From Candidatus Harpocratesius repetitus (GTDB lineage Archaea; Asgardarchaeota; Lokiarchaeia; Sigyniarchaeales; Promethearchaeaceae): DNA of 32,000 bases. This document shows positions 18,407 to 32,000 of the stretch, in pieces. Under the pieces are notes generated by a model, which saw only the letters and a list, made by a program, of their open reading frames with translations, had not been told where the DNA came from and did no database searches. The DNA lies in contig JAIZWK010000001.1 in the NCBI GenBank assembly GCA_021498095.1, positions 3,750,001 to 3,782,000 on the forward strand, read 5' to 3'. The position numbers and the translations under genes were made by a program. Positions within the stretch are counted from its first letter, which is position 1; each line of letters begins with the position of its first letter.

Positions 18407-18576
18407 GAACAAAATCTGGTTTATTTTTTGTTCTTTATTTTACATTTCGCCCGAATTTTTAATTCAACTAGTATCTTGCCAAAACATTATTAAATACAAA
18501 AGATGATATTTGTGTTACATATTTGGAAACCCTAACTTAATGATTAGTGCTTCCTTTGCATAAAAATGATTTAAGG

Positions 18577-21500
18577 ATGAATTTTCAGAGTTATGGTTTA
18601 AAGGGGGAATTTAAAATTAAAAACCTTAAATATAGAAAGCAAATTTTGAGTATTATTATAATTGCGTCAATGATCTGCAACATTGTTCCTCAAGTTGAAG
18701 CTGTTGGAAATCAACTTTCAAATGTGGAGCAATCAGACCCAGTTCAGTTCAAGAAAGAATTAAAATTTGATTGGATTTATGTTTTTTACGATCCTTCTGA
18801 TGAAGATATGAAATATCTTGGAAAATCCGTTTATCAAATCTTGAATTATCGAATCTACAATATAAAGCTGATTCCAATTAAATCATTAGGAGAACTACAA
18901 TCAAAATTAAATGAAAAACCATGGATTGGTATTTATGCATTTAATTCAAATCTTACAGGAATATTTATCAATCAGAAATTCTATCAATGGGAAGATTATT
19001 ACGGTGTTTTAGCTTTACATCAAGATACAAAACATATCGTAGGAATGGGAAACACTATTTCTTTAAAAAGTATCTATCCAGATGGGAATAAAGCAGAGTT
19101 TATCTATGATAGTGATGCCGATCAAATTGATCTATTGCTACTGGTCTTATATGATATTTGGACAGTTTCAGAAATTGCGAATCAACGCGCATTAATTGAA
19201 CCAGAATATAATGCAACTGCTGTAGATTTGACTTTAATGGCAACAAAATTATATGCTGATAACTTTAATACTTTTATAAATGTAAATTTCCAACCAATAA
19301 AGCCAATCGGACAAATTGATGAAGTAGATCGTGAAATTCGGACTCAAAAAATGTATGAAAAGCATGCACCTCAAATAGAACCAACATATTATCATAAAGA
19401 AGAAAATGGTTCTTTAACAGAAATTCCAGCTAATGAAATCGATCAAACATTTCAACCTACAGTCAAACTTTCTAAAGTTTCTGAATTAGATGAAGGAGAT
19501 TTTATTTTAGGAGAAGTCCCATTTTTATCAGGATTAAGAGGTCCAATTGGAGAAATAGTTGATATATTACTCCCATTGTTAGGTGGTGGAGATGGAAGTA
19601 GCGTACTTTCCATACCAAGTTCAATTATGGAATCAATTAAAGATTCTTTTGGACAAATCCAAAGTATAATAGGATTAGTCAGCGATTTTAGTGCAGAAAG
19701 TGCTCTGAAAACCCTTTTAGATATTTTGGCTGAAGAGTTTCCTTTTATTGATGAATTGAAACCCTTTTTAGAAATCTTTACAAAAGCACTTTTCAATATG
19801 AGAGGTGGTATTGATGATATTTCAGAGGTTATTTTTGAGATACTAAATGCAGTTTTGGAGCAAATACTACCTGATTCCATTGGTGATATTGTTGGAACAG
19901 TATTAAACGTTGGACAAGATTTGTGGGACGAAATTGATGCAGTTGTTTCTGAAGGAAAAAGTGTATTTGATGCCATGGTAAGCTTTTTCAGTGGGAATGT
20001 AATGAAGGGAATCTTGAATAAGACATTAGTTTCAAGTTTAGGTATTTCACAGGCACAAGCAACTGAATTAGTAAATAAATTTGTTCCTTTTATAAAATCT
20101 ACAATTTCATTCTTGGTTAGTTTTGATACAGATACATTAATAGAGACTTTAACGGGCCCCCTAATGCAGACAGTTTTAGGTTCTTTAGATACTTTACAGA
20201 TTGATGGTTTAGAGAAAATTGGCAAAGTTATCAAATTAGGATTTAAAGTGGTAGATTTAGCTGATGAATTTAATATTGAATCAGTTGTTGACGTTTTAAA
20301 AGAAGCAATTTTAATTTTTATAGATAATGAAGACATCCAAGGGGATGTGGAAAAACTTGCTCAGAAAATTATGAAAATCGTTCAAAATTTTAAAGAGGGA
20401 GCGTTTAGTAGTATTTCAAATTTTAAAGATCATGTTATTAACACTTTATCTGAATCTTTAGCAAGCAAAGTAACCGCAGAAACGAAAGAATTATTTGCTG
20501 ATATCATGACAATGGTTTGTGGTATCTATAATGAAGGTTTTGATCCTACAGAATTACCTAATATTTTTGACTTAGCAGAAGAAATAATCGATTATCTAAA
20601 TATGGATAGCAGCTTAGCAAATACATTAAAAGGTGCAATAAACAATTTAGTTAAGCCTGTTTTAGGAATAATTGGCCATTTAACCGGTTCTGAAGGATTA
20701 AAGCAAATGTTACCTGCAGATCTCTTTTCTACCAGTAATCTTATGGAAGCTATTCCAAATATAATCAAAACAGTTTTAGAATATATAGATACTGATGATT
20801 TATTAGATGGCTTACCTGATGTAGACACAATTATAAATACATTTGGACAAATTGCAAGCGGAATTATGGGTGTTGTTGATGCAGCTAAGGGAAAATCATT
20901 TACCGGTGTCCTAAAATCAATATGGATGTCTGTTGGATCTGTAATTACTTTGATTCCACCATTTGATGGAATACCCTTAGATGCAATATTTAAATTATTT
21001 CAAAGCTTTTTCCCTGAACAATTCGGATTAAGTCTTGAAAATGCACCTAATCCAACTGAAGTTGTTCAAGAAATAATGGAAATTGCATCATCATTCTTAG
21101 ACAGTTCAACTCAAGACATTCTATCCAACTTTTTGAATATGGCTATGAACCTGAAAGGCTTGTTTACCGATGGATTAGATTGGATCGTGGGCAAAATTCT
21201 TGATTGGGTGGGGGGTATGTTAGAACCCATACTCAACGACATTGAATCGTCTCTGATGGATATTCTGGGTGGTACCGGGGATTTGTTGGGTTATCACGGC
21301 ACGCTTCCGATCGGTTTGGGTGATTGGAGTCTCTTTGATTTGAAGATAGACCTGGGCATCCAAGCTAATTTTAATATTGATATCACCCCTCTGCTGGAAT
21401 TAGTAAAGAGCATGATTTTAGATGCTCGTAGTACTTTTTCTTTGGATAATATTGATGATTTCTTTAAAACTATATTTTCGATGTTCGAAATCAGCCCCCA

Positions 21501-24500
21501 ATTTTACGCCGAGCTTGGTGTAAGCGGTTTAGATACCGAATCCAATTCATTCATGAAATTCTTGTTGGAATCATTGGGTCTCGAATTGAGTTTTTCGGGT
21601 TATGCAAAATTCGTGATGAATTTATTCACCTTCAAAGGTGGCATTTTCGAGTGGGAGGATTTCTTCCATGTGGTCGAATGGGCTTTCGGTTTAAAGGTTG
21701 AACTAGGAAAAACATTTACATTACTCGACTTTCTTACAGGAGGAGTGGGAGGCGGGGCGCTAAACGCCATTGCTAAATTTTTAGGTCTTGATAGTATTAA
21801 TGTTCGGGTTTGGATAGGTTTAAGTTTAGATATAGTAAAGAAAGCCGGCTCGGCAACACAACCCGAGGTTTCAACATTAACAGTGGTGATTACACTCGGA
21901 TGTGCGGTTACAATTGGTATTGATTTACTTATTGTAGGAATAAAATTAATCGGATCATTAGAAATAATCCTAACATTCTTCCAAGATTTTGCTGCAGCAG
22001 CTCCGATGAAAATTACACTTCGACTAGTGTTAACTTTCAAAATAGAATTGAAATTCTTGTTTTCAACAACAACTAAGACATGGACGTGGGAACCTGGTGG
22101 TCCATGGGACCTCTCACCAAATAAAGGAGATCCAGAATATGAAAAATCAGGTGTTGGTTTCGATTCAGATGGAGATGGTTTAGGTGATGACTATGAAACT
22201 GATATACCAGGATTAGATCCAAATAATCCTGATACCGATGGAGATGGTGCCAATGACAAATTGGAAGTAAAAACCATGAATACCGACGCTACTAAACCGG
22301 ATACCGATGGTGATGGACTAACTGACTGGGAAGAATGGCAGCTGGGAACTAATCCATTAATCATTGATACTGATTACGACAAACTCACCGATTATGAGGA
22401 AGCTAAAATCTACTTAACCGATCCTTTAGTTCAGGACACAGATGGAGACAGACTATCCGATGCCTATGAAGTTTATACACGCTGGGATATCAGCAATGTC
22501 ACCACTACAGTTGATGAAGTTGTGATTGGAGGAAAAATATACAACGATCATACCGACCCGCTTAACAGGGATACTGATGGAGATGGATTACTAGATGGAG
22601 AAGAAGGGCCGATGGGACCATATTATGGTAATACTGCTCTGTATAATGAATCTGCTTCCGATCCTAATCCGCTTATCTATTTTAATGGATACACTCACCC
22701 GTTGGATGCAGATACTGATGATGACTCCTATTTACAGCTATATAACGGTGCGATTGACACTCAAGCGTTGACATTTCTAAAGGATATGAATGACGGCGCG
22801 GAGGTAAGGGGTTTTGATATTATTGTATTTGATGAAGAGGGAGAACCTGAATGGAAACACGTGATAACCAATCCATGTAACCCTGATACCGATGGAGACA
22901 CAGGAATAACAGACAGAACTCCGCAACCGGGCGCGTGGATTAACAGCGATGGCTATGAGTTGGCACAAACTCCGCCTACCGATCCGACTGATGGTGATAG
23001 CGATGATGACGGTTTGTTGGATGGTTTAGAAGGTGTACTGAGTCAATTCTCGAACCATACAAACCCAAATGATCCTGATACAGATGATGACGATCTTTTA
23101 GATATGCATGAAATTTTACTTGGAACAGATCCACGTTGTGCAGACACTGATTTAGATATGATCCCAGATGGTATTGAATTTTATGTTTTTCATACTAATC
23201 CTCGTTTATCTGATTCTGATTTTGATGGACTAAGTGATGGAGAAGAAGTCTATATTTGGCATTCAAATCCATTAAGTGATGATTCTGATGGAGATAGGCT
23301 TCTAGATGGAGTAGAAGTATTAAGATATGGTTCAGATCCGATGGACGATGATTCTGACAATGATGGTTTAACGGATTTTGAGGAGATTAAGGTATATTAC
23401 ACCAATCCGTTTGAGTACGATAGCGATGGAGATTTGCTTTCTGATGGTGAAGAAATCATCTTATATGATACTGATCCGCTTAATTGGGATACTGATATGG
23501 ATTCCATAACTGAACCAAATGCAATCGGTGAAATGACTTGGCCGATGAGCGATTACGACGAAATAATGTACTATGGAACAGATCCTACAAAACCGGATTC
23601 TGATTTTGATGGGATCAGTGATTCTATTGAATTATATTTAAGTTCAGGTATCATTCCATGGGCGCCAATGAATTTCACCCTCAACCCGTTATCAAAAGAT
23701 ACGGATAATGATGGATTTGCAGATGGATCAGAATTATTAATGAAGAACGTGTCTCAAATTATTTATCCTTTTGTTTCGCTTACCTACACTCTACCGTATA
23801 ATACTTCGCCAAGTTTGGCCGATACTGATTTTGATGGACTGAATGATTATGAGGAAGTAGTTACTTATTCGACTTCCCCTACACTTGTTGATACAGATAA
23901 CGACACACTGAGTGATTATGATGAAATTATGGTCTATAACACAAGTGCTTTGACAAATGATACTGATGGAGATGGATTACTTGATACTGAAGAATTACTT
24001 GTGCCGATGTCTTCGAGCCTACCAAGTGTAGCGACGGGGTATAATGGCGTTCCTATGAGAGCAGCAAAATATAATACAGATCCTCTTGACTGGGATTCTG
24101 ACAATGATTATCTACCTGATGGGGCAGAAGTTTACCTATATGGAAGTGATCCACTAAATCCTGATTCAACTGATTTAATTCCTGATGGTGTTCTCGATGG
24201 AGATGAGTTTGATAGTGATTTGGATGGGCTTTCTGATGGAATGGAGTTTTACATAGGAACTCAAAGAATATATAGTGGCGGTATATTCAATCCTGATTCA
24301 GATTTTGATGGATTGCTAGATGGAGATGAATATTATATCTTTGGAACTGATCCTATGAAAGCAGACACCGATAGTGATGGTTTTAGCGACGGTATCGAAA
24401 TTACTGTAGGAACAGACCCACTTGTATTTACCAATCAGAGCCAATTTAATGATGCTCTAGCCCTACTAAAAGGTAATGTAAATTTAGTCATAATGCAACC

Positions 24501-24867
24501 TCGAAGCGATAAGAAAGTATACCAAAATACACCTGTTGAAGTTGCAAATCTTACATCTATGCAGGAAGTTTGGTATCGTTATAAAGGATCAAACGATACA
24601 GAATGGTCTAATAATATATCTTGCCAATATGATGCAGGAAGTCAATTGTGGCAAGATAAAAATATAACATGGCAACCAGGACCTACTGAAATGGAGGTTT
24701 ACGGTCGTGGAATAAACGGAACCTTGTATAAAGCATATGTTCAATTTACAGTAAATAGCGGAAATGCACCAAATTGGGTTTTAATTGGAGGTCTTGGTGG
24801 AGGAAGCACAATAGCACTGGCCACACTAATATTTATTTTGATTAAGAAAAAGAAGGGAGGGAAATAA
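18577..24867 (+). CDS. Giant (~2100 aa) secreted, C-terminally membrane-anchored multidomain surface protein with Ca-binding TSP3-like repeats
   Basis: Signal-peptide-like KNLKYRKQILSIIIIASMICNIVPQVEA, amphipathic helical region, beta-rich region, 25 D[ST]DxD repeats, Ig-like segment, and TM helix followed by KKKKGGK. The start is uncertain: GTG 18547, ATG 18577 or ATT 18616. Confidence 0.92.
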   Translation: MNFQSYGLKGEFKIKNLKYRKQILSIIIIASMICNIVPQVEAVGNQLSNVEQSDPVQFKKELKFDWIYVFYDPSDEDMKYLGKSVYQILNYRIYNIKLIPIKSLGELQSKLNEKPWIGIYAFNSNLTGIFINQKFYQWEDYYGVLALHQDTKHIVGMGNTISLKSIYPDGNKAEFIYDSDADQIDLLLLVLYDIWTVSEIANQRALIEPEYNATAVDLTLMATKLYADNFNTFINVNFQPIKPIGQIDEVDREIRTQKMYEKHAPQIEPTYYHKEENGSLTEIPANEIDQTFQPTVKLSKVSELDEGDFILGEVPFLSGLRGPIGEIVDILLPLLGGGDGSSVLSIPSSIMESIKDSFGQIQSIIGLVSDFSAESALKTLLDILAEEFPFIDELKPFLEIFTKALFNMRGGIDDISEVIFEILNAVLEQILPDSIGDIVGTVLNVGQDLWDEIDAVVSEGKSVFDAMVSFFSGNVMKGILNKTLVSSLGISQAQATELVNKFVPFIKSTISFLVSFDTDTLIETLTGPLMQTVLGSLDTLQIDGLEKIGKVIKLGFKVVDLADEFNIESVVDVLKEAILIFIDNEDIQGDVEKLAQKIMKIVQNFKEGAFSSISNFKDHVINTLSESLASKVTAETKELFADIMTMVCGIYNEGFDPTELPNIFDLAEEIIDYLNMDSSLANTLKGAINNLVKPVLGIIGHLTGSEGLKQMLPADLFSTSNLMEAIPNIIKTVLEYIDTDDLLDGLPDVDTIINTFGQIASGIMGVVDAAKGKSFTGVLKSIWMSVGSVITLIPPFDGIPLDAIFKLFQSFFPEQFGLSLENAPNPTEVVQEIMEIASSFLDSSTQDILSNFLNMAMNLKGLFTDGLDWIVGKILDWVGGMLEPILNDIESSLMDILGGTGDLLGYHGTLPIGLGDWSLFDLKIDLGIQANFNIDITPLLELVKSMILDARSTFSLDNIDDFFKTIFSMFEISPQFYAELGVSGLDTESNSFMKFLLESLGLELSFSGYAKFVMNLFTFKGGIFEWEDFFHVVEWAFGLKVELGKTFTLLDFLTGGVGGGALNAIAKFLGLDSINVRVWIGLSLDIVKKAGSATQPEVSTLTVVITLGCAVTIGIDLLIVGIKLIGSLEIILTFFQDFAAAAPMKITLRLVLTFKIELKFLFSTTTKTWTWEPGGPWDLSPNKGDPEYEKSGVGFDSDGDGLGDDYETDIPGLDPNNPDTDGDGANDKLEVKTMNTDATKPDTDGDGLTDWEEWQLGTNPLIIDTDYDKLTDYEEAKIYLTDPLVQDTDGDRLSDAYEVYTRWDISNVTTTVDEVVIGGKIYNDHTDPLNRDTDGDGLLDGEEGPMGPYYGNTALYNESASDPNPLIYFNGYTHPLDADTDDDSYLQLYNGAIDTQALTFLKDMNDGAEVRGFDIIVFDEEGEPEWKHVITNPCNPDTDGDTGITDRTPQPGAWINSDGYELAQTPPTDPTDGDSDDDGLLDGLEGVLSQFSNHTNPNDPDTDDDDLLDMHEILLGTDPRCADTDLDMIPDGIEFYVFHTNPRLSDSDFDGLSDGEEVYIWHSNPLSDDSDGDRLLDGVEVLRYGSDPMDDDSDNDGLTDFEEIKVYYTNPFEYDSDGDLLSDGEEIILYDTDPLNWDTDMDSITEPNAIGEMTWPMSDYDEIMYYGTDPTKPDSDFDGISDSIELYLSSGIIPWAPMNFTLNPLSKDTDNDGFADGSELLMKNVSQIIYPFVSLTYTLPYNTSPSLADTDFDGLNDYEEVVTYSTSPTLVDTDNDTLSDYDEIMVYNTSALTNDTDGDGLLDTEELLVPMSSSLPSVATGYNGVPMRAAKYNTDPLDWDSDNDYLPDGAEVYLYGSDPLNPDSTDLIPDGVLDGDEFDSDLDGLSDGMEFYIGTQRIYSGGIFNPDSDFDGLLDGDEYYIFGTDPMKADTDSDGFSDGIEITVGTDPLVFTNQSQFNDALALLKGNVNLVIMQPRSDKKVYQNTPVEVANLTSMQEVWYRYKGSNDTEWSNNISCQYDAGSQLWQDKNITWQPGPTEMEVYGRGINGTLYKAYVQFTVNSGNAPNWVLIGGLGGGSTIALATLIFILIKKKKGGK
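22162..24423 (+). repeat. Protein-level tandem repeat, consensus D[ST]DxDGLxDxxE...G[TS][DN]P (bacterial TSP3-like Ca-binding)
   Basis: 25 D[ST]DxD motifs counted by hand (aa ~1206-1959 of the track ORF) plus one degenerate copy. Basic period ~23 aa, with several long insertions. Confidence 0.92.
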
Positions 24868-24869
24868 TA

Positions 24870-32000: not shown

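Follow-up and report, generated by a model that had tools for sequence, protein, structure and literature searches.

A conserved pair of large proteins, predicted to be membrane-anchored surface proteins with calcium-binding repeats, in Asgard archaea

The locus and the closest described systems

Long DxDxDG arrays of thrombospondin type 3 (TSP3)/COMP-like Ca2+ repeats are known from CglD of Myxococcus xanthus, MtsD and related bacterial adhesins, and the function of CglD is Ca2+-dependent (10.1101/2023.10.19.562135). Integrin-type propellers also occur in bacteria (PMC3192720). Here we describe a pair of adjacent genes, encoding two giant proteins designated P1 and P2, in a stretch of 32,000 nucleotides (the window) from Candidatus Harpocratesius repetitus (contig JAIZWK010000001.1, positions 3,750,001 to 3,782,000). 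P1 contains a TSP3 array and P2 contains FG-GAP propellers. The window is part of a closed archaeal chromosome of 4.36 Mb with a G + C content of approximately 31%, and the genome was placed in the same family as Lokiarchaeum ossiferum, in line with the Asgard affiliation on which an earlier note, made from the DNA sequence of the window, had made part of its interpretation conditional.

Both genes are long open reading frames (ORFs) on the + strand, the second of which runs past the end of the window (Table 1). At the junction, TAA-ta-ATG, the stop codon of gene 1 (24865-24867) is separated by 2 nt from the start codon of gene 2 (24870), and a Shine-Dalgarno-like site for gene 2 lies within gene 1. 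The junction sequence bears out all three of these features as they were first described: the two giant ORFs, the gap and the internal ribosome binding site. The chromosome sequence past the window was fetched, showing that gene 2 ends 867 nt beyond it. P2, initially reported as at least 2,377 amino acids (aa) running off the window, is 2,665 aa in full and has a transmembrane (TM) helix of its own at the C-terminus.

P1 shares the long repeat array with the bacterial TSP3 adhesins. The NCBIfam model for CglD (NF033765) matched P1 with an E-value of 7e-41; however, only the repeats were aligned and the score of 140 bits was under the 400-bit cut-off of the family. CglD, with 1,130 aa, is a lipoprotein of the outer membrane and contains a vWA domain, whereas P1 has no vWA domain or MIDAS motif, is anchored by a TM helix, and adds an unrelated head of 1,150 aa and an obligate propeller partner. 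With thrombospondin and COMP, P1 has in common contiguous type 3 repeats whose Asp ligands are invariant; these repeats probably make up a wire filled with Ca2+, not a flexible linker. In contrast to these proteins, P1 gave no Pfam match to EGF or TSP_C (L-lectin-like) domains, and its repeats lead into a small beta module and a TM helix. P2 has its repeat family and its calcium loops in common with the FG-GAP/VCBS multi-propeller surface proteins of prokaryotes.

The pair also resembles the integrins, in that two membrane subunits of the single-pass type are made together and one of them (P2) contains FG-GAP Ca2+ propellers, while the other carries an alpha/beta domain at its N-terminus and, besides a leg rich in repeats, a TM helix with a short tail. 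However, P2 differs from integrin alpha in its many propellers, its two TM helices and the absence of thigh or calf domains (by Pfam) and of GFFKR, and P1 differs from integrin beta in having no vWA/betaI, PSI or EGF Pfam matches. The resemblance is an analogy and not a homology. The repeat families are already known and the two-subunit logic is integrin-like. A prior description of the operon was looked for in the literature and none was found, as neither the P1/P2 pair, nor the L. ossiferum locus tags, nor an Asgard TSP3/FG-GAP system was mentioned in the paper library searched.

Conservation of the pair as a unit

A total of 400 Asgard genomes from 85 genera was searched with profiles of the P1 beta domain and the P2 N-terminus. 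The P1 profile was found in 89 genomes and the P2 profile in 85, each in 37 of the 85 genera. By family, the counts for P1 and P2 were equal within 1, and both were 0 out of 135 in one large family (f3). Comparison of the profile places showed P2 4-5 kb downstream of P1, on the same strand and contig, at 60 loci or more; only loci at contig ends and, in Heimdall-type genomes, a paralogous cluster of divergent sequence deviated from this. The order P1-then-P2 was present in L. ossiferum (G010; P2 is NEF87_004126), in another genome of that family, in Thor-labelled contigs, in a Heimdall-labelled contig and in two more Asgard contigs. The orthologous junction has a 3-nt gap in L. ossiferum and 4-nt overlaps or gaps of 0-12 nt elsewhere, and the genes flanking the pair were unrelated from locus to locus.

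The unit has also been duplicated as such. A shorter paralogous pair, with proteins of approximately 1,550-1,650 aa and 1,950 aa, keeps the P1-P2 order in at least 12 genomes. In addition, P1 and P2 are fused into single ORFs of 4,271-4,901 aa in five Thor-type genomes of one genus, and related fusions (P0142, P0057 and P0211) were found in independent metagenomes. The fused proteins show the order signal, P1 TM helix, basic loop of about 45-55 aa and P2 N-terminal TM helix, with a C-terminal TM helix in the full-length forms. This predicted topology is consistent only with both ectodomains on the outside. Subunits of one complex are classically recognised by coupled translation, common inheritance, joint duplication and repeated fusion; on these grounds, P1 and P2 very probably form one physical complex. 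Synteny, co-occurrence, the paralogous pair and the natural fusions thus uphold the coupled two-component unit proposed in the earlier note.

Outside the survey, the family of the P1 head gave 86 matches among 1.84 billion representative proteins. The orthologous family of P2 comprised 113 clusters, with Asgard names only and always paired with P1. All named relatives of either protein were labelled Loki, Thor, Odin, Heimdall, Hod, Kari or 'Asgardarchaeia', and they were annotated as 'hypothetical', 'FG-GAP', 'VCBS' or 'PQQ-like'. In the tree of the head family the sequences grouped broadly by Asgard lineage, with the Loki copies as one clade in a Thor-dominated group; a few Thor-labelled rows fell within this Loki clade. 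By sequence comparison, the P1 head is an undescribed protein family of approximately 1,150 aa.

Several loci with paralogues were seen. At one locus of the shorter pair (L030; G335:C4:308000-316000), and in at least 11 other genomes, the P1-like protein consists of a signal, a reduced head with the same beta domain and a TM helix, and the P2-like protein (about 1,950 aa) is encoded approximately 3.5 kb downstream. A closed Heimdall-labelled genome (L029; G107:C1:1640000-1659999) has two P1/P2 clusters about 29 kb apart and extra P2-like paralogues, one of which (P0256, 3,144 aa) contains lamin-tail and C-type-lectin Pfam domains. No paralogues of P1 or P2 were found elsewhere in the genome of the window.

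Architecture of P1 and P2

The features of the two genes are listed in Table 1. The N-terminal signal of P1 has a hydrophobic core at residues 32-54 and is presumably cleaved; at the C-terminus, a TM helix (residues 2077-2100) is followed by the tail KKKKGGK. The ATG at 18577 gives a complete signal that matches the N-termini of the orthologues. P2 has, besides its N-terminal hydrophobic segment, a TM helix at residues 2637-2659 with a basic tail (HRTRKIRR), encoded beyond the window. Because the fusions show that the N-terminal segment is a true membrane helix, P2 would be held in the membrane at each end. Both proteins, first taken to be secreted, are thus predicted to be membrane-anchored, P1 by its C-terminal helix and P2 by a helix at either end.

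Table 1. Positions of the two genes and their predicted features in the window
Feature	Position in window	Strand	Residues	Remarks
Gene 1 (P1)	18577..24867	+	approx. 2,096 aa from ATG 18577	In-frame GTG at 18547
P1 signal peptide	18577..18702	+		Basic n-region, hydrophobic core, conserved PQxxxA-G-type end in orthologues
P1 N-terminal alpha/beta domain	18775..19536	+	approx. 77-330	Flavodoxin-like three-layer fold in the model
P1 all-helical domain	19537..21261	+	331-905	Acidic; grand average of hydropathy (GRAVY) +0.38; no classical TM helix
P1 beta domain	21262..22116	+	906-1190	Nine to ten strands of 14-19 aa, one face purely hydrophobic
P1 TSP3 calcium-repeat region	22117..24411	+	1191-1955	22-23 repeats
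Conserved non-repeat insert in TSP3 region	22612..22986	+	1356-1480	125 aa; 81-84% identical to Thor-type orthologues
P1 membrane-proximal beta-rich module	24412..24762	+	1956-2072	Sequon-rich, poorly conserved
P1 TM helix and cytoplasmic tail	24763..24864	+		Tail of 7 aa, Lys-rich
Shine-Dalgarno-like site of gene 2	24855..24861	+		GGGAGGG, within gene 1, 8 nt before ATG
Gene 2 (P2)	24870..32000, on to window-equivalent 32867 (L003:871-8868)	+	2,665 aa	
P2 N-terminal TM segment	24894..24965	+	9-32	Kept as TM helix in fused proteins
P2 N-terminal propeller and inserted domain	25122..26669	+	85-600	60-75% identical between Loki and Thor
P2 second conserved block	27867..29069	+	1000-1400	Has FG-GAP Ca loops
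P2 variable half	29070..32000	+		20-40% identity; further propellers

The repeat region of P1 matched Pfam TSP3_bac (PF18884) with an E-value of 4.2e-31 and 106.8 bits, against a cut-off of 25. Counting of the motif DxDxDxxxDxxE gave 22 strict and 23 loose repeats (0.06 in shuffled sequences), so that the TSP3 repeats proposed earlier are present, at a number lower than the 25 first given. A search of the Protein Data Bank (PDB) with a profile of this region matched only generic calcium-binding proteins. The region is the best conserved part of P1, with 65-84% identity between Loki and Thor-type sequences and 50-60% with Heimdall-type sequences, and both the number of repeats and the Asp ligands are fixed across classes. 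This conservation, together with the insert, does not agree with the suggestion that the array is a simple spacer or stalk. The least conserved parts are the membrane-proximal module and the TM helix. No Pfam match was found for the module (residues 1956-2072), which had been called 'Ig-like'. N-X-S/T sequons are 2-4 times enriched in the TSP3 region and in the module.

P2 matched Pfam FG-GAP_3 (E-value 5e-24), and FG-GAP, Itfg2 and related propeller families also matched along the chain. A strict pattern detected 16 FG-GAP-type Ca loops, compared to 0.3 in shuffles, and the Asp residues of the loops are invariant across orthologues; the N-terminal hydrophobic segment and the several calcium-loop propellers were therefore correctly recognised at the outset. 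A PDB sequence search with P2 gave no match. Calcium binding by both proteins is predicted from motif conservation, and the invariance of the binding residues across classes fits the calcium-binding character assigned to the pair in the earlier note.

The head of P1, approximately 1,150 aa between the signal and the TSP3 repeats, was modelled with AlphaFold2 (residues 40-1190) from 57 homologues, with a predicted local distance difference test (pLDDT) score of 76.6 and a predicted template modelling (pTM) score of 0.50. The model reproduced the order that had been read from the sequence: an alpha/beta domain, a helical part of about 575 aa and about 280 aa of beta strands, with short helices inserted. 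No Pfam or NCBIfam relatives of the head were found, and a PDB sequence search with the head profile matched designed helical repeats only; an ESM Atlas feature search, with a best score of 0.78, was uninformative. Structural matches (VIA) of the N-terminal domain were PurE, receiver and TIR domains at Z 8-10. For a caspase/CHAT reading of the domain, the caspase-like domain of Raptor (Z about 7) and separase gave matches at Z 6-7, below these generic flavodoxin-like folds, and no vWA chain was among the top 50 matches, absence from a ranked list being weak evidence. The all-helical domain gave no Pfam or PDB sequence match.

The beta domain was also modelled alone (pLDDT 73.7), and this model was run, with no prefilter, against 48,161 representative chains of the PDB. 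The best 50 of these chains were all bacterial outer-membrane barrels, with 180-205 residues aligned (for example CymA, Z 11.7; EspP, Z 10.7; FecA, Z 10.6), where a Z of about 10 can arise from geometry alone. Foldseek and the ESM Atlas concur on this likeness, the latter with template modelling (TM) scores up to 0.53. The model has a meander of long strands with a hydrophobic and a polar face, as do the autotransporter beta-domain, TonB-dependent receptors and CymA, and also the open-barrel or sheet lipid carriers (LolA, LptD, MTP/lipovitellin). However, neither group has any sequence or Pfam relation to P1, and the likeness is one of shape only. To our knowledge, archaea have no outer membrane and no beta-barrel assembly machinery (BAM). 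The Asgard host is single-membraned (PMC9834061).

The strand faces of the beta domain alternate strictly (mean hydropathy +2.35 versus -1.20). It also contains a Gly-rich loop that is conserved, and its short helices are hydrophobic. The domain is comparable to membrane proteins in hydrophobicity. In the window protein it has a GRAVY of +0.59 and no sequons; in 12 of 12 orthologues the GRAVY was +0.46 to +0.79, again with 0 N-X-S/T sequons where approximately 14 were expected in total. In hydrophobicity, residues 331-1190 together (GRAVY +0.45 over 860 aa) exceed 93% of the genome's long ORFs. As the beta domain is hydrophobic and free of sequons throughout the orthologues, it must be buried, be it in a membrane, by lipids that it binds or through packing on the hydrophobic helices of P1 itself. 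In the model, it looks membrane- or lipid-engaging. The whole head matched MTP/lipovitellin in Foldseek with an E-value of 2.9e-4 and a probability of 0.85, but with a TM score of 0.08 and a root-mean-square deviation of 35 Å, and the beta domain alone matched large lipid transfer proteins with an E-value of 0.027. There was no Vitellogenin_N-type Pfam match in P1 and the likeness did not recur among the top VIA rows; it is kept as a lead only. A relation of the head to viral fusogens was unsupported, as a viral fold library gave nothing at E ≤ 0.001.

Some minor observations on the termini and gene calls were made. The public gene call for P1 (2,065 aa) begins at Met42, which falls within the hydrophobic signal core, and the orthologue N-termini share a PQxVWA-G-like end. 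The cytoplasmic tails of P1 orthologues (e.g. P0009, P0027, P0040 and P0008) are Lys-rich and 7 to about 200 aa long. Many P1 orthologues end in GG[A/K], as in the KKKKGGK of the window protein, and this ending may be a conserved C-terminal signal. Broken gene calls were seen for P2, of 258 + 2,349 aa (L022:10527-18382) and 543 + at least 1,058 aa (L025); gene splitting, a frameshift or an error in the sequence could each account for them.

Possible function and surroundings of the locus

Asgard cells have no S-layer and show protruding surface proteins whose identity is unassigned (PMC9834061; 10.1101/2025.11.06.686947). Some of these 'complex surface proteins' form bridges between protrusions or are found where the membrane curves (PMC9834061). 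P1/P2 is a concrete molecular candidate for them: two subunits with about 4,760 residues in both chains, predicted to bind calcium, Asgard-restricted and spread over the Loki, Thor, Odin, Heimdall and Hod lineages. As cultured L. ossiferum has orthologues, the pair is experimentally testable. Cell-cell contact is central to ideas on the origin of eukaryotes.

We lean towards the explanation that P1 and P2 are the two subunits of a surface complex that is conserved in, and specific to, Asgard archaea, has its anchors in the cytoplasmic membrane and acts in contact with cells or surfaces. The subunits would be produced together from one mRNA, through the ribosome site of gene 2 within gene 1. 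P1 would be a type I membrane protein, its distal head of flavodoxin-like, helical and amphipathic beta domains borne on the 22-23 TSP3 repeats, which would make a rigid array loaded with Ca2+; a small glycosylated beta module, the TM helix and the Lys-rich tail would complete the chain. P2, fixed in the membrane at both ends, would loop out about 2,600 aa of propellers with 16 Ca2+ loops. Because the fused forms make a TM-loop-TM hairpin, the TM helix of P1 and the N-terminal TM helix of P2 probably lie side by side. The likeliest contact between the ectodomains would be between the TSP3 region of P1 and residues 100-600 of P2, as these are their best conserved parts. The assembly would be one of the protruding complex surface proteins, and during contact with a cell or surface the hydrophobic head of P1 would engage a lipid or another hydrophobic surface. 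We infer the Ca2+ dependence, the surface location, the contact role and the lipid engagement of the complex; engagement of lipid or membrane by the head is plausible, if a little short of probable.

Several observations weigh against this explanation. Most of the Lokiarchaeia searched lack the pair, among them a same-family genome of 4.3 Mb that is closed. Of 14 genomes in the family to which the window belongs, 3 have it if that of the window (G000) is counted (2 of 13 otherwise), and in f3 the count is 0 of 135. Because of this absence, the pair cannot be essential for the Asgard lifestyle, nor can it be a general requirement for syntrophic contact. Adhesins usually evolve fast, and an identity of 60-84% between classes is high for such a protein. 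The cytoplasmic tails are short and unconserved, so that a link to the cytoskeleton is not evident. The hydrophobic face of the sheet could pack on the protein's own hydrophobic helices, and the pTM of the head model was just 0.50. A look-up of RNA runs listed none that contains the locus. Finally, the sole co-fold tried (P2 residues 85-600 with P1 residues 1191-1500) gave no P1-P2 interface; its score was 0.00 with the fold of the partner uncertain, and it counts neither way.

The same complex could instead have a structural role, as a building block of an amorphous coat that replaces the S-layer, with the sheet as a core packing on the helical domain. Asgard cells with a non-crystalline coat have been described (PMC9834061; 10.1101/2025.11.06.686947), and the very high conservation, the fixed repeat number, the usual single copy per genome and the housekeeping surroundings would suit such a role, as would the hydrophobic inserted helices of the beta domain, which could cover the sheet. 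However, a component at the core of the envelope would be expected to occur more widely than this pair, which is found in approximately 22% of the Asgard genomes searched, and is missing from the closed same-family genome and from 135 of 135 genomes of f3. Furthermore, soluble coat proteins do not usually have a GRAVY as high as +0.45 over 860 aa. We consider the coat role rather unlikely, yet clearly ahead of the two following alternatives.

It is quite improbable that the pair is a machine for nutrient capture or polymer degradation, in which the propellers of P2 bind or cleave glycans and P1 is an accessory. The lambda-carrageenase propeller family did match 5 of 7 P2 orthologues (best E-value 1.5e-11), some orthologues had BNR_2 matches, one is named 'sialidase family protein' in the database, and residues 1400-1750 of P2 show a BNR-like pattern when read by eye. 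However, propeller families cross-match freely, Pfam and NCBIfam searches gave no catalytic domain or active-site family above threshold, the PDB sequence searches were empty, and the P1 head would be left unexplained. Least probable of all is that P1 and P2 are independent surface proteins that share an operon without forming a complex. Adjacent genes often encode proteins that do not interact, and the single co-fold attempt gave no verdict; against this stand the full-length natural fusions with consistent membrane topology in several genomes, the co-occurrence and co-loss of the families across the 400 genomes and the duplication of the unit as a pair.

A more specific form of the contact explanation is an Asgard-specific membrane-contact machine, in which the tip of P1, a membrane-type barrel or a large lipid cavity, is carried on a calcium-stiffened support. 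Such a machine would act on the membrane of a partner cell, or of the archaeon's own protrusions and vesicles, either by inserting into it or by trading lipids or hydrophobic molecules with it. We regard both the machine and this mode of action as unlikely. If true, it would be a new class of archaeal device, bearing on syntrophic contact and models of eukaryogenesis. The beta domain of P1 is itself notable, being predicted to be amphipathic and outer-membrane-like although the organism has no outer membrane.

Upstream of the pair lie an A-type ATPase operon and other housekeeping genes. Downstream of gene 2 there are genes for LSm, ribosomal protein L37e, a radical-SAM/HhH protein, DUF4130 and FeoB. 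The cluster consists of exactly two genes and ends with gene 2; the further genes beyond the window that had been thought possible were not found. The LSm-like gene (81 aa) and the L37e gene (83 aa) are located directly 3' of gene 2 (L003:9048-9572), and a DDE transposase gene is present farther past the window (L003:17986-19284).

An exact copy of approximately 168 bp of the interior of gene 1 (window position ~20556-20723, P1 residues ~671-726) was found 1.7 Mb away in the same chromosome (G000:C1 ~2077110-2077280; L009 ~1501-1680, - strand), inside an ORF of 130 aa. The copy has sharp borders and unrelated flanks, and may stem from capture of a gene fragment, be the scar of a recombination event or have arisen as an artefact of assembly.

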